Shown: positions 16,523 through 51,067, numbered from the stretch's first letter. The stretch: DNA of 57,349 nucleotides from an uncultured Gammaproteobacteria bacterium (GCA_964645825.1 CAZXZY010000002.1:1-57349); one strand, 5' to 3'. Made by a program: numbers and translations. The notes: generated by a model not told the origin, from the sequence alone.

Positions 16523-16550
16523 ATTATACGGATTTTTTTTGATTTGTCAA
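16523..16550 (-). promoter_or_regulatory. Sigma70-type promoter of the infA-r-protein-rpoA operon
   Basis: Minus strand reads TTGACA (16550-16545), a 16-nt spacer, then TATAAT (16528-16523), about 100 nt upstream of infA. Confidence 0.65.
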
Positions 16551-16733: not shown

Positions 16734-17495
16734 ATGTCTAAGAGGTGGTTTATTTATCTGATCAGCCTGATGGCTGTCGTCGCTGTTGGTGCTTACTTCT
16801 TACCTCAAGCATTGGAATGGTACAATGCTCTGGGAGTAGTAAACCAAATGGATATATATAGTGATTTACTTGGTAGCTTCATTGTCAGTGCGATGATCGG
16901 CATGGCAGTTGGCCTTATTATAAGACAATTGGATGCTGTCATCCTTATAGTCATCGTAGGTTCAGCCATGTCCCTACATGCTAGCTTACCAGCAGCATTA
17001 ATGTTCTGTACCGGCTATCTGCTTTTATTTTTTCCGACCTACCTAATCAGAACCCGTCACATATCTTGGAATGATCAGTACGTTGAAAGACCAACTGTAC
17101 CTGGAAACTGGGCCATCTATTGGCTCAGCCTGATGATAGTTGTTGCTCTTGGCAGCTATTTCTCACACCAAGTAATAGAGTGGTGCAGTAACTTGCATCA
17201 AGGCATCCAAACAGTAATAGCTTATTTATCAATTTCTGCCACAATCACTAGCATAATTTTTGCCATCATCATTGGACGACTTGAAAAAAATGATGGAGCC
17301 ATTATTGCTACAGTCTGTGTTTTCGCTGTCGTACTTCTCACTGTGTTATTCGGCATCAAGATGATTCGTGTTCCGACGAATATAGCTCGCTTAGCTTTTG
17401 GAGCGTCATTCTTGATCAGCTATCTTATTGCCTTTTTCCCGACCTACTTTATTAAAAAGTCTCGGGAACCGAAAGTTTTCGAGAGGGTTGCCTAA
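16734..17495 (+). CDS. Polytopic membrane protein of unknown function with an internal tandem duplication
   Basis: The two halves align: KRWFIYLISLMAVVAVGAYFLPQALEWYNAL versus GNWAIYWLSLMIVVALGSYFSHQVIEWCSNL, and YLLLFFPTYLIRTRH versus YLIAFFPTYFIKKSRE. Confidence 0.6.
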   Translation: MSKRWFIYLISLMAVVAVGAYFLPQALEWYNALGVVNQMDIYSDLLGSFIVSAMIGMAVGLIIRQLDAVILIVIVGSAMSLHASLPAALMFCTGYLLLFFPTYLIRTRHISWNDQYVERPTVPGNWAIYWLSLMIVVALGSYFSHQVIEWCSNLHQGIQTVIAYLSISATITSIIFAIIIGRLEKNDGAIIATVCVFAVVLLTVLFGIKMIRVPTNIARLAFGASFLISYLIAFFPTYFIKKSREPKVFERVA

Positions 17496-17508
17496 TCCTC
17501 GCTCCTTC

Positions 17509-41295: not shown

Positions 41296-42225
41296 TTAGA
41301 TAATAAAATATAAGCCCATGCTAATTAAAATCACGGCTAAGATTTTTTGAATAATAATCATTTTAGACACATTTTCTTTTAATAATTTTGGAAAGAAAGC
41401 TGAAATCAAACCACCCAAGACTAACAAAAATGCATACTGCACGCCTTGCAAGGCATTTACTATGGCAACCGAGCCTAAGAAAATAGCATAATTTTGTAAT
41501 AAAAATCCTATAGCCGCAATACCTTGATTAGAAAAAAACAAGGCGCTATTTTTATGTTTCAAAGATTTTAGGCCATGAAAAATCTCTTTTCGTACTTTTC
41601 TAGGAATAAGTAAAGATAAAGTAGCTAAAAATGTACCAATTCGGATCCAAATAAAACTACTCAAAAATGGCTGACTATCATACAAAAATTTACTACCGAC
41701 GAAAAAGATAGCAAAAACTATACCGGCAGCAATGGCAGTGATGACTGCTGTTTTATTTTTTGTTCCCTTCAATCCAAACCAATGCAACATCTTGGACCAC
41801 AAAGTATTACTAGCTGGTAAATAAGCTAACATAACTGTACCTAGCAATAAATAAATAATAGCTACCCATTGCATGGTCAAAAATCTTTCTCCTAAAAATA
41901 GATAAGCTAACAAGATGGTAAAAATTGGCACTACACCGCCAATTAATGGGATAATTTTGGAAGCATCACCAATTTTAAGTGATCGATATAATAACAATAA
42001 AGCTCCTGGAAATAAAGCACCAACTAAAAGATTGCCTAACAACAGGGAAACTCCCGGCCAAGTTAAAAACCACGGAGCAATAACAATGACTATCAAGCCC
42101 ATGGCACCCACTAAAAAAGTGTAAGTTTTAGCACTAGGAACTACATTTTCTAATAAAAATTTATCTGCAAGATTTACAACTGCTAAAATCAAATAAGCAG
42201 CAATGGCAATGGCTAACCAATCCAT
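41296..42225 (-). CDS. EamA/DMT superfamily transporter
   Basis: 309 aa with about 10 TM helices in two similar halves. Confidence 0.6.
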   Translation of the reverse strand: MDWLAIAIAAYLILAVVNLADKFLLENVVPSAKTYTFLVGAMGLIVIVIAPWFLTWPGVSLLLGNLLVGALFPGALLLLYRSLKIGDASKIIPLIGGVVPIFTILLAYLFLGERFLTMQWVAIIYLLLGTVMLAYLPASNTLWSKMLHWFGLKGTKNKTAVITAIAAGIVFAIFFVGSKFLYDSQPFLSSFIWIRIGTFLATLSLLIPRKVRKEIFHGLKSLKHKNSALFFSNQGIAAIGFLLQNYAIFLGSVAIVNALQGVQYAFLLVLGGLISAFFPKLLKENVSKMIIIQKILAVILISMGLYFII

Positions 42226-42274
42226 AAAATTTTTGTTTAATGATTGTTTATATTATATCATTTTTTGCCTAACT

Positions 42275-42303
42275 TTGACAAAAAAATCTCATCATTTTAT
42301 AAT
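42275..42303 (+). promoter_or_regulatory. Unit 1 promoter
   Basis: TTGACA (42275-80), 17-nt spacer, TATAAT (42298-303). Confidence 0.7.
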
Positions 42304-42387
42304 TATATTAATTATAGTTCTTTCAGGGATTTAAAATCCCTTATTCATATATCCTGGTCTTTTTATTTCAACACATGAGGTGATATT

Positions 42388-42435
42388 ATGAGAAAACTAC
42401 CACTGATCATCACTCTGGTAACGAACACTGGGTAA
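42388..42435 (+). CDS. Unit 1 sORF, 15 aa (MRKLPLIITLVTNTG), apparently a truncated paralogue of the unit 2 peptide
   Basis: GAGGTGA SD (42377-83) 4 nt from the ATG. A terminator follows 17 nt after the stop. Confidence 0.4.
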   Translation: MRKLPLIITLVTNTG

Positions 42436-42452
42436 AAAATCGATGGCCGTTA

Positions 42453-42484
42453 AGCCCACCTAAAGGAAGGTGGGCTATTTTTTT
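42453..42484 (+). terminator. Unit 1 intrinsic terminator
   Basis: AGCCCACC-TAAAGGAA-GGTGGGCT-ATTTTTTT. The T-run merges into the next -35. Confidence 0.8.
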
Positions 42485-42511
42485 GACAAAAAAGTAGGTT
42501 CTTTATATAAT
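42483..42511 (+). promoter_or_regulatory. Unit 2 promoter
   Basis: TTGACA (42483-88), 17-nt spacer, TATAAT (42506-11). Confidence 0.7.
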
Positions 42512-42603
42512 TAATATATTAATGTACTCTCAATTTTTTACATCAGAGGTAAAGTAGCCTCTAGATGCATCCTGGTAACTTTTTATAAAGAAAGGAGCTT
42601 CCT

Positions 42604-42732
42604 ATGAAGCGCTTACTTATTCCTCCACAGATCAAGATGATCGTCACCAACGCCGCAACGAAAAATGCCGCCGCCAACACACCGAAGCTGGACGTGGATG
42701 TAGCTGGCCGAACGCAGAGCGCGAATTGGTAA
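42604..42732 (+). CDS. Unit 2 sORF, 42 aa (MKRLLIPPQIKMIVTNAATKNAAANTPKLDVDVAGRTQSANW)
   Basis: AAGGAG SD (42592-97) 6 nt from the ATG. The ORF is GC-rich. A terminator lies 18 nt after the stop. Confidence 0.5.
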   Translation: MKRLLIPPQIKMIVTNAATKNAAANTPKLDVDVAGRTQSANW

Positions 42733-42750
42733 CAGCCCAAGCAGGACCTT

Positions 42751-42777
42751 GCCCGTCAAAAGGAGACGGGCTTTTTT
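42751..42777 (+). terminator. Unit 2 intrinsic terminator
   Basis: GCCCGTC-AAAAGGA-GACGGGC-TTTTTT. Confidence 0.85.
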
Positions 42778-42814
42778 ATTTGACTTTTCGACTTCGCTCA
42801 AGGTCTGCACAAAT

Positions 42815-42843
42815 TTGACAAAATTTTAAAGCCTAGATATACT
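42815..42843 (+). promoter_or_regulatory. Unit 3 promoter
   Basis: TTGACA (42815-20), 17-nt spacer, TATACT (42838-43). Confidence 0.65.
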
Positions 42844-42849
42844 TTATTC

Positions 42850-43034
42850 ACATTGATCATTCTTACGTCCACTTGGCTGGACACGTCACTTCTGCCGTAT
42901 ATTAAGTAACATTCACTTAACACTTCCACTTTGACCACTACTTCCTACTTAGGCAGAAGCAAGCATCCCTACACCCATTAGGTGTAATCAAACGTCATGC
43001 GCCCGTTGAGAAATCGATGGGCGCTTATTTTTTT
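42850..43034 (+). ncRNA. Unit 3: candidate ~185-nt structured small RNA (no SD-preceded ORF)
   Basis: Hairpins GTCCA-N6-TGGAC (42868-83) and ACACC-N5-GGTGT. Long-range stem CTTCTGCC (42889-96)/GGCAGAAG (42952-59) encloses a C/U-rich stretch. Terminator GCGCCCGTTGA-GAAA-TCGATGGGCGC plus T-run (42999-43034). Confidence 0.5.
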
Positions 43035-43042
43035 CAAAGCTC

Positions 43043-43071
43043 TTGACAAAAGCTGAGAAATAGTGTAGATT
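43043..43071 (+). promoter_or_regulatory. Unit 4 promoter
   Basis: TTGACA (43043-48), 17-nt spacer, TAGATT (43066-71). Confidence 0.6.
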
Positions 43072-43077
43072 ATCATT

Positions 43078-43206
43078 CTTCGCTCCTTACTTACCCATAT
43101 GCATCAGATCCTGGTGACTCTCCTGATAGCTGTGTGTGACAAAGATGCAGCCAAGTGCTTGCATCGCTGTGCTTACCCGCTGAACTAGATTCGGCGGGTA
43201 TTTTTT
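43078..43206 (+). ncRNA. Unit 4: candidate ~130-nt small RNA with 5' anti-SD motif; contains an SD-less 29-aa ORF (43099-43188, MHQILVTLLIAVCDKDAAKCLHRCAYPLN)
   Basis: 5' CGCTCCTTACTT. Hairpin GATGCAGC-CAAGT-GCtTGCATC (43144-65). Terminator TACCCGCTGAA-CTAGA-TTCGGCGGGTA-TTTTTT (43174-206). Confidence 0.5.
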
Positions 43207-43255
43207 ATTAAAATAGCTAATATTAGCTAAAATAATAAGGTAGTACCTAATGGAC

Positions 43256-43284
43256 TTGACAAATTATGCATAGTATGCTTAATG
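43256..43284 (+). promoter_or_regulatory. Unit 5 promoter (extended -10 type)
   Basis: TTGACA (43256-61), a 17-nt spacer ending in TGC, then TTAATG. The TATGCATA palindrome lies in the spacer. Confidence 0.5.
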
Positions 43285-43331
43285 TTCTATTAAGCTCATT
43301 GATACAATCACATCCATTTAGGAGTAGCCTC

Positions 43332-43451
43332 ATGATTAACTGGTTTCTGACCAGGCTTTTCCGGCCTACTTCTGGATGTTCGACCCACTTGCCGGGCCCT
43401 CGCCCAAACAGCAAACCGCGCATTGATTTGCGCTACGAACATCCGGATTAG
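43332..43451 (+). CDS. Unit 5 sORF, 39 aa (MINWFLTRLFRPTSGCSTHLPGPRPNSKPRIDLRYEHPD)
   Basis: AGGAG (43320-24) 7 nt upstream of the ATG. The longer track ORF would start inside the promoter. Confidence 0.4.
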   Translation: MINWFLTRLFRPTSGCSTHLPGPRPNSKPRIDLRYEHPD

Positions 43452-43645
43452 TTAAGTGATCTGACGACAATCCTTCAAATTCCCTGGAGAAGTCAATGCG
43501 ACACCTTTACCCTCCGTAGATCTACAAGGAGAGCCAAGACTCTCTGTAAGTAATTCACTGAGGCACCACAAGGTCGCCACTCCAACTCAATCCAGACAAC
43601 GCCGGAGGCAAAATGCCCCACAGGAAAATCGCCCCCCTGAATCTT

Positions 43646-43680
43646 GCCGCTGTGTACGACGTACGCAGCGGCCTTTTCTT
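43646..43680 (+). terminator. Unit 5 intrinsic terminator
   Basis: GCCGCTGTGTAC-GAC-GTACGCAGCGGC (12-bp stem) followed by CTTTTCTT. Confidence 0.8.
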
Positions 43681-43691
43681 ATATTTAAAAC

Positions 43692-43727
43692 AAAAACAGC
43701 CCTGAATAATATAGGACTGTTTTTTTA
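43692..43727. terminator. Bidirectional terminator (serves the OLD gene on the minus strand)
   Basis: AAAAACAGcCC-TGAATAATATA-GGaCTGTTTTTTT. Confidence 0.55.
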
Positions 43728-43778
43728 TTTAGGCACCACAAATACATGATTCCATGATCTTTATGACTAATGATTGAA

Positions 43779-45116
43779 TTATAAAGCTTGAATTACCTCT
43801 TTGAGGGGTCGCATTATTTTAGAATTAAAATCCGTTTTAGTGATAGCGGTTGCGGCATACAAAGCATTTAGTGTTTTCTTATCATCACGTTGATATTTTT
43901 TTGGATAATGCCTTTCAATAGAGCCAGATGGTAAAACAAAAACTTTATGTTCTTTAAGTTCTATGATTATATCATTAGCCTTATGTGCTTTAAGTTTTAT
44001 ATCTAAACGGCTTACCACTCTATCTAGTTGATATTTTATAATATCTCTATCCGCTAAAATAATATAGTTAATATTAAAAATTTTTAATAAATCTACATAC
44101 AAAGCGATGTTGCCTTTACCATGTGTCTGGACGACTTTGATATCTCTATCTCCCTGATAAAAACGATCTATTAAACCACGTAATAATATACGATCTGAAA
44201 TACCTTCTACTAAAACTGCTGTATCAGCAAATAACATTTCAACATTATCAGCGTTTAATTCTTGTATCAGACGCTTGTAACTATAGTGCTGTTTTTTAAT
44301 TGGCAAACCAAAGGCTTTGGTGCTGTCAGCATCTTTTATTACTCGCAATACTTGCGGCAAAGTAACAGAGTTGATAAATAAAGGTGAATGAGTAGAAAAT
44401 AAAATTTGTCCTCCACCCTCGGCATTTTGCATGGCCCACAAAAGTTTTTTGACCAAAACTGGATGAAGATGAGTCTCCGGTTCATCCAAAATAACTATCT
44501 GATAGTCAGGATGAAAAATATATAATAGTATAACAAAAATCCTTCTAAACCCAGAACCCAGGTGATCAATGGTGGCTTTACGTGTTCCTTCTTTGATGCC
44601 AGCATGCTCATAATGAATATCTAGTGCGTTTTCTTTGGCACTGATTTTTGGAAAATGATTTTTCAAATGTTGCTTAAATAAATTTAAACTTTCTTTGTGT
44701 TCTTGTAATGTCTTCCAATCTCTATCTATATCATCAAGATCATTAAAAGCATCATAATTAAGATGTTTTATTTTAGTTGATAATAATGCTTTTAATTCTC
44801 CTCTATAATTTGTAATCTGATTTGGAAATGCTAATTTTCTTTGTTCATTTTTGATAGTTAGGCTAGCTTTCCTGGCTGGCAGATTCCATTCGTTAGCCTC
44901 TTCCTCAGTAAAACTAAGTTCTGCCTCTATATCGGCTTCTGGGTACTCCAAAATCGGACTGACTCCCTGCACATCAAAAAGATAATCAATGGCATATAAA
45001 ATATTACTCTTACCACAATTATTTTGACCAATCAAAATATTAACCGGTAGCGTAGAAAAACTGATCGGCTGTTTAATACTTTTGTACAAATTAATATGTA
45101 GAGTAGTAATTTTCAT
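43779..45116 (-). CDS. OLD-family ATP-dependent endonuclease (ABC/AAA ATPase + Toprim)
   Basis: Walker A ILIGQNNCGKSNILYAI, Walker B VILDEPETHLHP, FSTHSP, Toprim Glu AVLVEGISDRILL, and acidic ILADRD. Confidence 0.8.
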   Translation of the reverse strand: MKITTLHINLYKSIKQPISFSTLPVNILIGQNNCGKSNILYAIDYLFDVQGVSPILEYPEADIEAELSFTEEEANEWNLPARKASLTIKNEQRKLAFPNQITNYRGELKALLSTKIKHLNYDAFNDLDDIDRDWKTLQEHKESLNLFKQHLKNHFPKISAKENALDIHYEHAGIKEGTRKATIDHLGSGFRRIFVILLYIFHPDYQIVILDEPETHLHPVLVKKLLWAMQNAEGGGQILFSTHSPLFINSVTLPQVLRVIKDADSTKAFGLPIKKQHYSYKRLIQELNADNVEMLFADTAVLVEGISDRILLRGLIDRFYQGDRDIKVVQTHGKGNIALYVDLLKIFNINYIILADRDIIKYQLDRVVSRLDIKLKAHKANDIIIELKEHKVFVLPSGSIERHYPKKYQRDDKKTLNALYAATAITKTDFNSKIMRPLKEVIQAL

Positions 45117-46454: not shown

Positions 46455-46535
46455 CTAACGATAGCGAATATTCGCTATTTCTTTATTGCGCTTGCGACGA
46501 TGTTTTTTGAGCGCAATTTTTCTTTTTTTATTCAT
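46455..46535 (-). CDS. 26-aa highly basic sORF (MNKKRKIALKKHRRKRNKEIANIRYR), absent from the ORF track
   Basis: Very strong SD AAGGAGGAGGG directly before the ATG. The stop lies 4 nt before the UgtP-like start. Contains the palindrome ATAGCGAATATTCGCTAT (46461-78). Confidence 0.45.
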   Translation of the reverse strand: MNKKRKIALKKHRRKRNKEIANIRYR

Positions 46536-49885: not shown

Positions 49886-50893
49886 CTATTTGTTGACTTT
49901 TTTAAAAAATCCTAGTTTAGCTCGATCTCGATATTGTGGCTTATATAAGCCTAAAAAATCAATAATCCCTTGTGGTGACAAATCATATCCTGTAACTTCT
50001 ACTGTCTTTTTTCCATCCAATAAAGCTGTAGCCATAACTGGTTCCTTGTGGCCAATAGCATAAGCTAATTTAACAATAACTTCTTTTGCTTGGTATTTTT
50101 TTAAATACTCTATGGCCAAAAATCTAGCCATATAAGCTGCTGATCGATCAACTTTTGAAGGATCTTTACCAGAAAAAGCTCCACCACCGACAGGCACTTG
50201 TGGACCATAATTGTCTATGGTTATTTTACGTCCAGTCAATCCAGTGTCAGCTGTAAAACCGCCAACAACAAAAATTCCAGTTGGATTAATATGAACTTCT
50301 TCATAGTTAGGAATTATTGGATCAATTACCTCTTTAATAATCAATTTGCGCAAAACATCTTGATTAATATTTTTTGAATGCTGAGTAGATAAAACAACAG
50401 TCTTTACTTTGTCATTTTCTAAAGTGACTTGTGCCTTGCCATCTGGACCTAAAAATTGTGATAATTGATTATCCTTATCAGCTCTTACTTTTTCTAAACG
50501 ACGAATAAGCTTGGCAGCTAAAACATGCTCAAGCGGTAAAAGCTCTTTGGTCTCTGTTGTAGCATAACCAATCATAATACCTTGATCACCAGCGCCACCA
50601 ATATCAACTCCTTGAGCAATGTCTGGACTCTGATGAACCAAATTTACCGAAATATCAAGTTCGTCACTATAACCAATCTCTTGATAAACTTGCCTGGCAA
50701 TTTTAGCAACATCTATTTTGGCTGTGGTGGTCAACTCACCTATAATAAATAATTTTCCATGCCCACCTACAGTTTCCACAGCTACACGACTATTTAGATC
50801 TTGTCGCAAACACTCATCTAAAATAGCATCTGATATTTGATCACAAACTTTATCTGGGTGTCCCCAAGTCACATTCTCTGCTGTTTTTAACAT
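49886..50893 (-). CDS. metK: S-adenosylmethionine synthetase (short, 335 aa)
   Basis: GHPDKVCDQISDAILD ... GAGDQGIMIGYA ... GGGAFSGKDPSKVDRSAAYMAR. Confidence 0.92.
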   Translation of the reverse strand: MLKTAENVTWGHPDKVCDQISDAILDECLRQDLNSRVAVETVGGHGKLFIIGELTTTAKIDVAKIARQVYQEIGYSDELDISVNLVHQSPDIAQGVDIGGAGDQGIMIGYATTETKELLPLEHVLAAKLIRRLEKVRADKDNQLSQFLGPDGKAQVTLENDKVKTVVLSTQHSKNINQDVLRKLIIKEVIDPIIPNYEEVHINPTGIFVVGGFTADTGLTGRKITIDNYGPQVPVGGGAFSGKDPSKVDRSAAYMARFLAIEYLKKYQAKEVIVKLAYAIGHKEPVMATALLDGKKTVEVTGYDLSPQGIIDFLGLYKPQYRDRAKLGFFKKVNK

Positions 50894-50910: not shown

Positions 50911-51048
50911 TAAAAAATCTTTCCCCAATGGAGAAAGCTAATGTGACTAAATATTATCTTCCCCGCGGGGTTGGACTTAGCACCTTGTCTAATAGATAGG
51001 TTGCTGGCGGATCAACAAGCCAATTCTCTCCCCGCACTCTTGATAATT
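50911..51048 (-). promoter_or_regulatory. SAM-I (S-box) riboswitch with terminator expression platform
   Basis: Minus strand reads UUAUCAAGAGUGCGGGGAGAGAAUUGGC...CCGCCAGCAACC...GGUGCUAAGUCCAACCCCGCGGGGAAGAUAA. It matches the S-box core (P1 UUAUC/GAUAA, AAGAG, GCAACC, GGUGCUAA.UCC). Next comes CTTTCTCC-ATT-GGGGAAAG-ATTTTTT (50937-50911). Confidence 0.85.
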
Positions 51049-51067
51049 ATTATTCAATTGTTTGATT

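Follow-up and report, generated by a model that had tools for sequence, protein, structure and literature searches.

Why should a genome with little room to spare keep 1553 nt in which no long protein is encoded? The Patescibacteria (candidate phyla radiation, CPR) have tiny genomes with little space for non-essential DNA, and to our knowledge almost nothing is known of the small proteins and small RNAs (sRNAs) of CPR bacteria. The question is raised by a stretch of DNA of 57,349 nt (CAZXZY010000002.1:1-57349 of assembly GCA_964645825.1; the whole stretch is called the window here), in which a gap at 42226-43778 separates an EamA gene from a gene for an OLD-family ATPase-TOPRIM protein. The host genome is AT-rich and of the Patescibacteria/Parcubacteria type; the best relatives of its EamA protein are labeled Nomurabacteria, Komeilibacteria and ‘Patescibacteria group’. 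An earlier examination of this DNA, made without database searches (the sequence-only reading), had described the gap as a tandem array of five self-contained transcription units that matches no described system.

The observation is real and exceeds what chance would give. The gap is probably a permissive intergenic site, with OLD convergent on one side and EamA divergent on the other, where independent small genes have piled up in this particular lineage, and the array is a set of genes of known kinds, encoding small proteins or sRNA, not a new class of system. On the best reading the array comprises three small-protein genes (two of them paralogs), one probable paralog that has no open reading frame (ORF), and one sRNA candidate. 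To say that it matches no described system was an overstatement, since each unit taken alone is a small gene of an ordinary sort; the unusual features are how densely the genes are packed locally, their turnover, their GC-rich codons and a recurrent mini-ORF that ends in Pro-Pro-stop. Anything new is most likely to be found in the module that combines this mini-ORF with an upstream palindrome.

Five predicted transcription units in the gap

As had been claimed, the gap lacks any long ORF; none exceeds 65 aa (minus strand), and the next in length, of 61 aa, has its start within a promoter. It is also rich in G+C (GC), at 0.42-0.43 over 42501-43500 compared with about 0.30-0.35 in the surroundings. 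The statement that this is the most GC-rich DNA in the AT-rich part of the window holds in that the gap has the top 500-nt value downstream of 4500, by a narrow margin, since 17001-17500 reaches 0.416.

Five units can be defined on the plus strand, each with a predicted TTGACAAA promoter and a predicted terminator formed by a GC-rich stem and a T-run (Table 1). There are nine TTGACAAA sites in the 57-kb window, and the gap accounts for five of them, each on the plus strand. A promoter scan gives TTGACA-17-TATAAT-type promoters at the heads of units 1 to 4, and a fifth TTGACA begins unit 5. All five TTGACA elements and their -10 hexamers are present where the sequence-only reading had placed them; the -10 element of unit 5 has however been re-read, as by homology it is better taken to be TAATGT with an 18-nt spacer. 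Since a promoter of the same type drives the infA-rpsM ribosomal cluster (at 16550), the gap units appear to carry the strongest promoter form of the organism. The five proposed terminators are all found on the plus strand, with 6-8 GC pairs each. A scan of 4 kb returned 13 terminator-like sites where 2.5 are expected, and in the ~56 kb outside the gap only one terminator has at least six GC pairs; the gap holds five of the six strongest in the window. The T-run of unit 1 runs directly into the -35 element of unit 2, as had been noticed. Thus the architecture of five promoter-to-terminator units is present, and its signals are concentrated in the gap.

Small ORFs (sORFs) of 15, 42 and 39 aa, each led by a Shine-Dalgarno (SD) sequence, are found as described in units 1, 2 and 5, and no SD-led ORF is found in units 3 or 4. 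The G+C content at the third codon position (GC3) of the sORFs is 0.50-0.65, against 0.20-0.27 in host genes. The description of the units as rich in hairpins applies mostly to their terminators. Once these are removed, the minimum free energy (MFE) z scores are +0.6, -0.3 and -0.3 for units 1, 2 and 4, respectively, and excess folding is kept only by unit 3 (z = -2.7) and by the ORF part of unit 5 (z = -3.6).

The sequence-only reading recognized no housekeeping RNA or riboswitch in the gap, and this is borne out. With the covariance models of Rfam 15 the best score in the gap is 21.9 bits, against cut-offs of at least 50, and the homologous regions of six relatives give nothing at E ≤ 0.1; ARAGORN detects neither tRNA nor tmRNA in the gap. 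Known RNAs were rejected as the identity of the units on this basis, Rfam at both gathering and permissive thresholds (in the window and 16 relatives) and ARAGORN explaining none of them.

Paralogous small-protein genes and a probable third copy

Units 1 and 2 are, from their alignment, evidently tandem paralogous small-protein genes. With their orthologs (four aligned sequences in all) they have in common the promoter, a 5′ stem-loop, a ATCCTGGT..CTTTTT block, the SD sequence and the start codon, and their peptides share MKRL-PP-I..VT-N. In both units the stop codon of the sORF lies 16-18 nt ahead of the terminator stem. The orthologs come from relative loci that we fetched and labeled by number (L001 and upwards). 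That of unit 1 is unit b of L184 (alignment z = 24), encoding the peptide MKRLNPPIITVTTMENAQMQS; the frame is preserved and the C-terminus differs. That of unit 2 is the single unit of L018, 77% identical over 205 nt with a peptide identity of 60%, and is common to L018, L019, L024 and L104. In the KNAANTP and TQSA blocks of unit 2 all differences between the window and L018 are synonymous. A single-sequence AlphaFold2 (AF2) model of the unit 2 peptide has a helix and a β-hairpin with a mean confidence (pLDDT) of 80; Foldseek matched nothing to this model, the best E value being 4.

How far does this family extend through the array? All five units had been regarded as a diverged tandem family on the strength of three shared blocks, and these fare differently. 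The ATCCTGGT block is found as reported at 42351, 42569 and 43108, which are three of its five occurrences in the window where about one is expected. The AAATCGATGG block occurs only at 42437 and 43011, as stated, but this is near chance for one repeated 10-mer in 1.5 kb, and one of the two copies falls within a terminator loop. The ATGCAT cores are not significant by themselves. However, the 5′ motif ATGCAT..ATCCTGGT of unit 4 is in common with units 1 and 2, and because it shares this block and has no SD-led ORF, unit 4 is probably a third copy from which the ORF has been lost. The family is therefore retained for units 1, 2 and probably 4, while units 3 and 5 are unrelated to these or to each other. 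Two further comparisons, of L027 with unit 1 and of unit A of L106 with unit 4 (both z = 4.1), were rejected as homology, since only short words are in common.

Unit 5, a candidate for dual constraint

Homologs of the unit 5 peptide are found in L022, L184 and L106, making four lineages with the window. In the conserved blocks INWFLTRLF and IDLRYEHP, 49 codon differences are synonymous and 15 non-synonymous, and the variable sites are distributed 8/1/15 over codon positions 1/2/3, these counts being made on blocks picked for their conservation and in few lineages. In the C-terminal block the third position varies in all eight codons with the residues unchanged. Because their conserved blocks change mostly synonymously (in unit 2 only so), the sORFs of units 2 and 5 are to be regarded as protein-coding genes, a conclusion that is good but not exhaustive. 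The sORF peptides give tblastn matches only at homologous positions. They match no family in Pfam, PHROGs or the PDB sequences, and searches of 1.8 billion representative proteins (phmmer) and 5.8 billion clusters (profile) return only the peptides themselves and the L022 copy of unit 5. For the unit 5 peptide AF2 gives a low-confidence model, with an N-terminal helix only.

The coding part of unit 5 also appears to be constrained as RNA. In all four homologs the codons of the linker pair with those of the conserved C-terminal block, in linkers that are otherwise unalignable, and by comparison with shuffled linkers the four P values are 0.001, 0.006, 0.001 and 0.027. Some of the changes within the helix are synonymous on both arms. 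With a coding pattern and a helix that are both kept in all four homologs, unit 5 is best described as a structured mRNA under putative dual (protein and RNA) constraint.

A second SD-led ORF of unit 5 (43613-43705, plus strand, beginning MPHRKIAP) resembles the L022 mini-ORF MPHTQIPP-stop. The window has a run of six C at this point, one too many for an in-frame TGA after MPHRKIAP, and because of this extra C, which all contigs share, the ORF extends across the terminator.

The palindrome module and its Pro-Pro-stop mini-ORFs

The promoter of unit 5 is preceded by a palindrome (Table 1). We examined nine gap modules of this type (unit 5 of the window, L022, L184, L106, L055, L114, L032, L134 and L039), and in all nine a palindrome of consensus TTTTGGCTAATATTAGCCAAAA is centered 34-36 nt upstream of TTGACAA. 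The nine also share a TATGCTAATAT-type -10 element, a predicted GC-rich transcript of 160-450 nt and a predicted strong terminator, which is often followed by a second, bidirectional one. In the window the latter corresponds to the hairpin between unit 5 and the OLD gene, which looks like a bidirectional terminator insulating the one from the other; L184, L106, L055 and L134 have equivalents. The palindrome is probably a general transcription-factor or UP-type site. The idea of a palindrome ‘regulon’ within the window was rejected; the other near-matches fall inside coding sequence and so are taken to be coincidental. Beyond the promoter and terminator the distant transcripts of the unit 5 type cannot be aligned, and no common fold was found among them.

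The palindrome is also seen in other settings. At the same 34-36 nt from the -35 element it stands in front of strong TTGACAA promoters in many Patescibacteria, distant ones among them. Besides its place upstream of EamA in L032, L055, L114, L134 and L039, it occurs in L042 at 4766 and in L184 at 6945, and it lies between tRNA genes, upstream of tRNA promoters, in L072, L073, L097, L103, L133 and L169.

A second recurrent element lies within the transcripts. An SD-led ORF of 5-15 codons that starts with ATG and ends in Pro-Pro-stop is present in seven of the 12 gap transcripts, where dinucleotide shuffles lead one to expect 0.006. The seven peptides are MRHLYPP (in the window), MPHTQIPP, MRTRRQKIPP, MPAHMHPP, MLHPRSPP, MRRWRKPP and MPNSHSMRLLLPP. 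As a control we analyzed both strands of 1.36 Mb of non-redundant Patescibacterial DNA. Among the 544 SD-led ORFs of 5-15 codons that it contains, exactly seven end in Pro-Pro, and all seven lie in the OLD-EamA gap on the same strand. They have 7-13 codons and are basic and His-rich, and this feature is kept while the surrounding sequence is not. In L039 the stop codon is 9 nt from the terminator stem. A C-terminal Pro-Pro slows the termination of translation, and this makes a ribosome-pausing role for the mini-ORF plausible by analogy.

These features can be combined into a bolder reading, which we consider improbable. The unit 5-type module would be an undescribed family of regulatory RNAs or leaders, wide in the Patescibacteria, that comprises a palindromic operator fixed at about -70, a promoter of stable-RNA grade, a GC-rich structured transcript and the Pro-Pro-stop ORF of 7-13 codons, at which pausing would report translational capacity. 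In an organism dependent on its host for amino acids, the status reported might be that of EF-P, release factor or prolyl-tRNA. The signal would then be coupled to the cluster of OLD nuclease and envelope genes, and the extra units of the window would be small effector proteins and sRNAs, evolving rapidly, that were recruited to this site.

Unit 3, an sRNA candidate

The transcript predicted for unit 3 is G-poor and C-rich, with no SD-led ORF, and it contains five copies of CACTT (CACUU in the RNA) where 0.27 are expected. No homolog is present in any fetched locus. On these sequence properties unit 3 looks non-coding and is an sRNA candidate.

Distribution and turnover among relatives

How general is the array? 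The gap was compared within the clade whose EamA proteins are at least 79% identical to that of the window, and homologous units are indeed present in related genomes, ranging from none to the five of the window (Table 1). Taking all lineages with adjacent OLD and EamA genes, 12 of 43 have a gap greater than 200 nt. In each of these 12 the insert is GC-enriched and has a predicted promoter, terminator or both on the plus strand of the window. The GC content of the inserts is 0.42-0.59, against 0.30-0.38 in the genomes, and this richness persists in lineages as distant as 71% EamA identity. The suggested co-occurrence of the array with OLD is found. None of the 24 lineages without OLD has a gap greater than 77 nt, so that inserts occur in 12 of 43 lineages with OLD and none of 24 without (Fisher P = 0.0026, shared ancestry being ignored).

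The neighbors of the gap (DUF6938, OLD, EamA, the glycoside hydrolase (GH)-like gene, the S8 peptidase and glycosyltransferases) are conserved chromosomal genes in dozens of Patescibacteria. The gene order DUF6938-(OLD)-EamA-GH-like-S8 peptidase is kept in well over 100 fetched Patescibacteria loci, and because of this conservation OLD is judged to be a long-resident gene and not a mobile defense island. The tracking of OLD identity with EamA identity likewise suggests long vertical residence rather than a mobile island.

Two observations on these neighbors may be added. DUF6938 (weakly glycosyltransferase-like), EamA and the GH-like gene are adjacent in almost every fetched Patescibacteria locus (L024-L183), with OLD lying between DUF6938 and EamA in a subset only, its identity roughly following that of EamA. 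Secondly, a Cys-rich micro-ORF (CPxCGxxPCTC), of which the window retains a remnant, lies between OLD and EamA on their strand and gives tblastn matches in more than 10 distinct lineages, at 9569-9616 in L018, 9932-9973 in L020, 1023-1070 in L022, 4078-4119 in L106 and elsewhere. It is missed by gene callers and has the look of a conserved micro-protein that binds metal, or of a peptide precursor.

Table 1. Features of the OLD-EamA gap in the window, and gap sizes in relatives with at least 79% EamA identity. Promoters, terminators and transcripts are predicted.
Feature	Position	Strand	Details
EamA gene	41296-42225	minus	left neighbor of the gap
EamA promoter	42252-42281	minus	TTGTCA-18-TATAAT, TG-extended; -35 overlaps unit 1 -35 on opposite strand
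Unit 1	42275-42484	plus	-35 42275-80; -10 42298-303; 5′ hairpin 42325-41
Unit 1 sORF	42388-42435	plus	15 aa, MRKLPLIITLVTNTG; SD GAGGTGA 42377-83
Unit 1 terminator	42453-76 + T-run	plus	
Unit 2	42483-42777	plus	-35 42483-88; -10 42506-11; 5′ hairpin about 42545-63
Unit 2 sORF	42604-42732	plus	42 aa; SD AAGGAG 42592-97
Unit 2 terminator	42751-71 + T-run	plus	
Unit 3	42815-43034	plus	-35 42815-20; -10 TATACT 42838-43; transcript about 185 nt
Unit 3 terminator	42999-43024 + T-run	plus	
Unit 4	43043-43206	plus	-35 43043-48; -10 TAGATT 43066-71; transcript about 129 nt
Unit 4 ORF	43099-43188	plus	29 aa, without SD
Unit 4 terminator	43174-43200 + T-run	plus	
Palindrome	43205-43238	none	core TAGCTAATATTAGCTA 43214-29; dyad centre 34 nt upstream of unit 5 -35
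Unit 5	43256-43680	plus	-35 43256-61; -10 43280-85; SD AGGAG 43320-24
Unit 5 sORF1	43332-43451	plus	39 aa, MINWFLTRLF...IDLRYEHPD
Unit 5 mini-ORF	43496-43519	plus	SD-led, MRHLYPP-stop
Unit 5 second SD + ATG	43613	plus	
Unit 5 terminator	43646-72 + T-run	plus	
A-tract/stem/T-tract hairpin	43687-43729	none	bidirectional-terminator-like; between unit 5 and convergent OLD
Cys-rich micro-ORF remnant	43729-43755	minus	MESCICGA; full form 16 aa, ME-CPNCGN-PCTCGA
OLD-family ATPase-TOPRIM gene	43779-45116	minus	Pfam and PADLOC; right neighbor of the gap
L020 gap			103 nt, 0 units
L205 gap			98 nt, 0 units
L018 gap			461 nt, 1 unit
L022 gap			734 nt, 2 units
L184 gap			1204 nt, 4 units
Window gap			1553 nt, 5 units; largest array among those seen

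Discussion

Our analysis points to an array in which each unit would be transcribed separately from its own promoter, a strong intrinsic terminator insulating it from its neighbor. Units 1 and 2 would each consist of a promoter, a 5′ stem-loop, an SD sequence and an sORF of the family MKRLxPPxI..VTN, while unit 3 would yield a small non-coding RNA, unrelated to them, with several CACUU motifs exposed in single-stranded form. Unit 5 would be an older module, common to more distant Patescibacteria. Its palindrome, some 70 nt ahead of the inferred start, is placed as activator sites typically are, and its promoter would drive a GC-rich, internally paired mRNA for a protein of 39-43 aa (INWFLTR...IDLRYEHP) together with the mini-ORF. 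We infer that the units are expressed and translated, that their high GC reflects selection for stable, structured mRNA, and that the array grew through duplication and insertion. The products may be trans-acting sRNAs and small proteins with regulatory or binding roles, and by analogy the Pro-Pro-stop mini-ORF might be a ribosome-pausing element.

Some 1.5 kb of a CPR genome would thus be devoted to five mini-genes with the strongest type of promoter, most of which gene callers miss. The array yields candidates that can be tested for a role as small, rapidly evolving effectors or regulators in an uncultured lineage of episymbionts, and the palindrome-promoter module with its Pro-Pro-stop mini-ORF gives access to the control exerted in CPR bacteria by transcription factors and in connection with translation. 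A further indication is that a gap rich in GC and poor in ORFs, within an AT-rich genome, is not necessarily a structured RNA.

The closest parallels among described systems are of an ordinary kind. SgrS/SgrT, RNAIII/hld and SR1/SR1P are likewise short transcripts with their own promoter and intrinsic terminator and an SD-led ORF of less than 50 codons, in which the RNA fold itself is conserved, as is the helix of unit 5. The array is unlike them in that there is no homology, five units are packed head to tail into 1.5 kb, and the codons are far GC-richer than those of the host.

A number of points weigh against this account. The promoters and terminators are consensus matches only, and a GC3 of two to three times that of the host would also fit a foreign origin. 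The step to regulatory small proteins is one of inference, the peptides matching no family searched. Homologs are few (four lineages for unit 5, two for unit 2 and two for unit 1), with the codon counts confined to conserved blocks, and units 3 and 4 have no homolog anywhere searched. The unit 1 peptide differs from its ortholog in length (15 against 21 aa) as well as in its C-terminus, and the L018 copy of unit 2 begins with TTG. The Pro-Pro-stop hypothesis arose after the data were seen; moreover the mini-ORF was not found in L184, the closest unit 5 homolog, and it lies anywhere between 9 and about 210 nt from the terminator.

Could the units be primarily structured or regulatory non-coding RNAs, their SD-led sORFs incidental or secondary and their GC-richness a mark of RNA structure? 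We consider this unlikely for the array as a whole. In its favor, the inserts are GC-rich compared with their genomes, and an SD-led ORF is lacking in units 3 and 4. Unit 3 combines its excess folding with the repeated CACUU, the unit 5 helix survives sequence change, and the promoter module resembles that found upstream of tRNA genes. Furthermore, what the distant gap transcripts keep is the promoter, the GC-richness and hairpins around SD-AUG, and not long ORFs. Yet units 2 and 5 have the codon-position pattern and conserved peptides of genes, units 1, 2 and 4 show no folding beyond that of shuffled sequence once their terminators are removed, and there is no Rfam match even at E ≤ 10, nor an alignment or common fold for the distant transcripts. 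The codon pattern thus contradicts a pure structured-RNA reading for units 2 and 5, and such a reading may still hold for units 3 and 4. The sORF units are genes under apparent purifying selection and not primarily the new structured RNAs that had been put forward as a candidate; units 1, 2 and 4 have no excess structure.

It is very unlikely that the sORFs are translation-sensing leader peptides at which Pro-Pro(-stop) pausing sets read-through into the next unit or antisense transcription over OLD. The stop codons of units 1 and 2 are suitably close to the terminator stems, and closer still in L039, while the Pro-Pro-stop mini-ORFs are confined to the unit that is convergent with OLD. The slow termination at a C-terminal proline has precedents in TnaC and in the tmRNA tagging that follows stalling at Pro-stop, with which the short SD-led ORFs of the gap modules may be compared. 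But with a strong promoter at the head of every unit, expression of the next one does not call for read-through, and no regulated gene follows any terminator on the same strand, there being nothing on the plus strand downstream of unit 5. Between unit 5 and OLD, in the window as in several relatives, stands a second, bidirectional terminator, and this favors insulation over regulated antisense transcription. Unlike the TnaC and Erm leaders, the gap mini-ORFs have no sequence similarity to them, no downstream gene on the same strand and a variable distance to the terminator, besides being missing from L184.

The cassettes might alternatively have been acquired horizontally from phages or GC-richer donors, as autonomous cargo resembling the morons of phages. 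Both the promoter-gene-terminator architecture of morons and their deviant base composition are encountered here, the GC3 values being those given above, and presence varies among close relatives. Nevertheless we find this most doubtful. BLAST with the units gave nothing in 50,697 phage records and 72,556 plasmids, and in seed searches of IMG/VR with units 2-5 the 17-19-mers occurred at chance frequency, none being extended. Neither mobility genes nor flanking repeats accompany the array, and the nearest thing to an att-like site is a weak 26-nt direct similarity at the ends of the gap; this was dropped as an att site or target-site duplication, since the remnant micro-ORF and start-region sequences account for it. 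In contrast to morons the array is chromosomal and syntenic with no phage genes as neighbors, its promoters have the consensus of the host (and its strongest form), and two of its units are paralogs arising by local duplication. The GC-richness that lasts to 71% EamA identity argues for selection rather than recent import.

A type I toxin-antitoxin (TA)-like set, in which the sORFs would be toxic and units 3 and 4 would supply RNA antitoxins acting in trans to mask the ribosome-binding sites, is extremely unlikely. The peptides are small, the promoters strong and the mRNAs structured and GC-rich, and a nuclease gene adjoins the array. Like ldr/rdl, ibs/sib, zor/orz and hok/sok, it has tandem small ORFs of variable copy number on structured mRNAs. 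A GCUCCUU stretch of unit 4 is complementary to the SD region of unit 2; it was dropped as an interaction, the duplex energy being no better than that of shuffles, and all 10 inter-unit RNA pairs are within chance (duplexfold compared with shuffles). The peptides are moreover not hydrophobic. On the Kyte-Doolittle scale the highest mean over any 15 aa reaches 0.2-1.1 in the SD-led peptides and 1.7 in the SD-less ORF of unit 4, compared with 2.6-3.2 in the control toxins Hok, TisB, Fst and IbsC. There is no antisense RNA gene and no minus-strand promoter within the array, and L018 has a lone sORF unit with no partner RNA. The proposal of a toxin-antitoxin set consequently fails.

Other known systems were rejected more directly. 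A GC-rich, untranslated-looking region beside an OLD-family ATPase-TOPRIM gene recalls Retron-Eco8, and the OLD protein matches NF038234 weakly (8e-15, far below the cut-off). However, the gap holds five promoter/terminator units and not one msr-msd RNA, and no reverse transcriptase domain occurs among the flanking genes of the conserved neighborhood. A repeat array (of the type III TA ToxI-like, CRISPR or TIGR kinds) was rejected because Tandem Repeats Finder gives only two trivial repeats of 8-9 nt; our repeat search of the region found no repeated unit except pieces of promoters and terminators. Lastly, several contigs end within the gap or at its edges, but the probability of an assembly artifact or chimera is practically nil, as the whole 1553 nt is spanned at 99.9% identity by at least 11 independent metagenome contigs (JGI, ENA and Logan) and one break point is the end of a 62-nt stretch that is 97% shared with a co-occurring sister species, a normal cause of breaks.

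Other features of the window

The 62 nt upstream of EamA (42226-42287) contain two overlapping, divergent -35 hexamers (TTGACA/TTGTCA). They are 97% identical to those of the L018-type sister species, though the flanking EamA proteins are only 82% identical, and within the near-identical population one contig breaks exactly where this stretch ends.

The only Rfam match at gathering level in the window is a SAM riboswitch of the SAM-I class at 50951-51049 (minus strand; 61.6 bits, E = 6.6e-12). It lies directly upstream of the gene for S-adenosylmethionine synthetase (49886-50893).

A very basic sORF of 26 codons, MNKKRKIALKKHRRKRNKEIANIRYR, with a strong SD sequence (AAGGAGGAGGG), is found at 46455-46535 on the minus strand. 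It ends 5 nt ahead of the start of the DUF6938 gene and contains the perfect palindrome TAGCGAATATTCGCTA.

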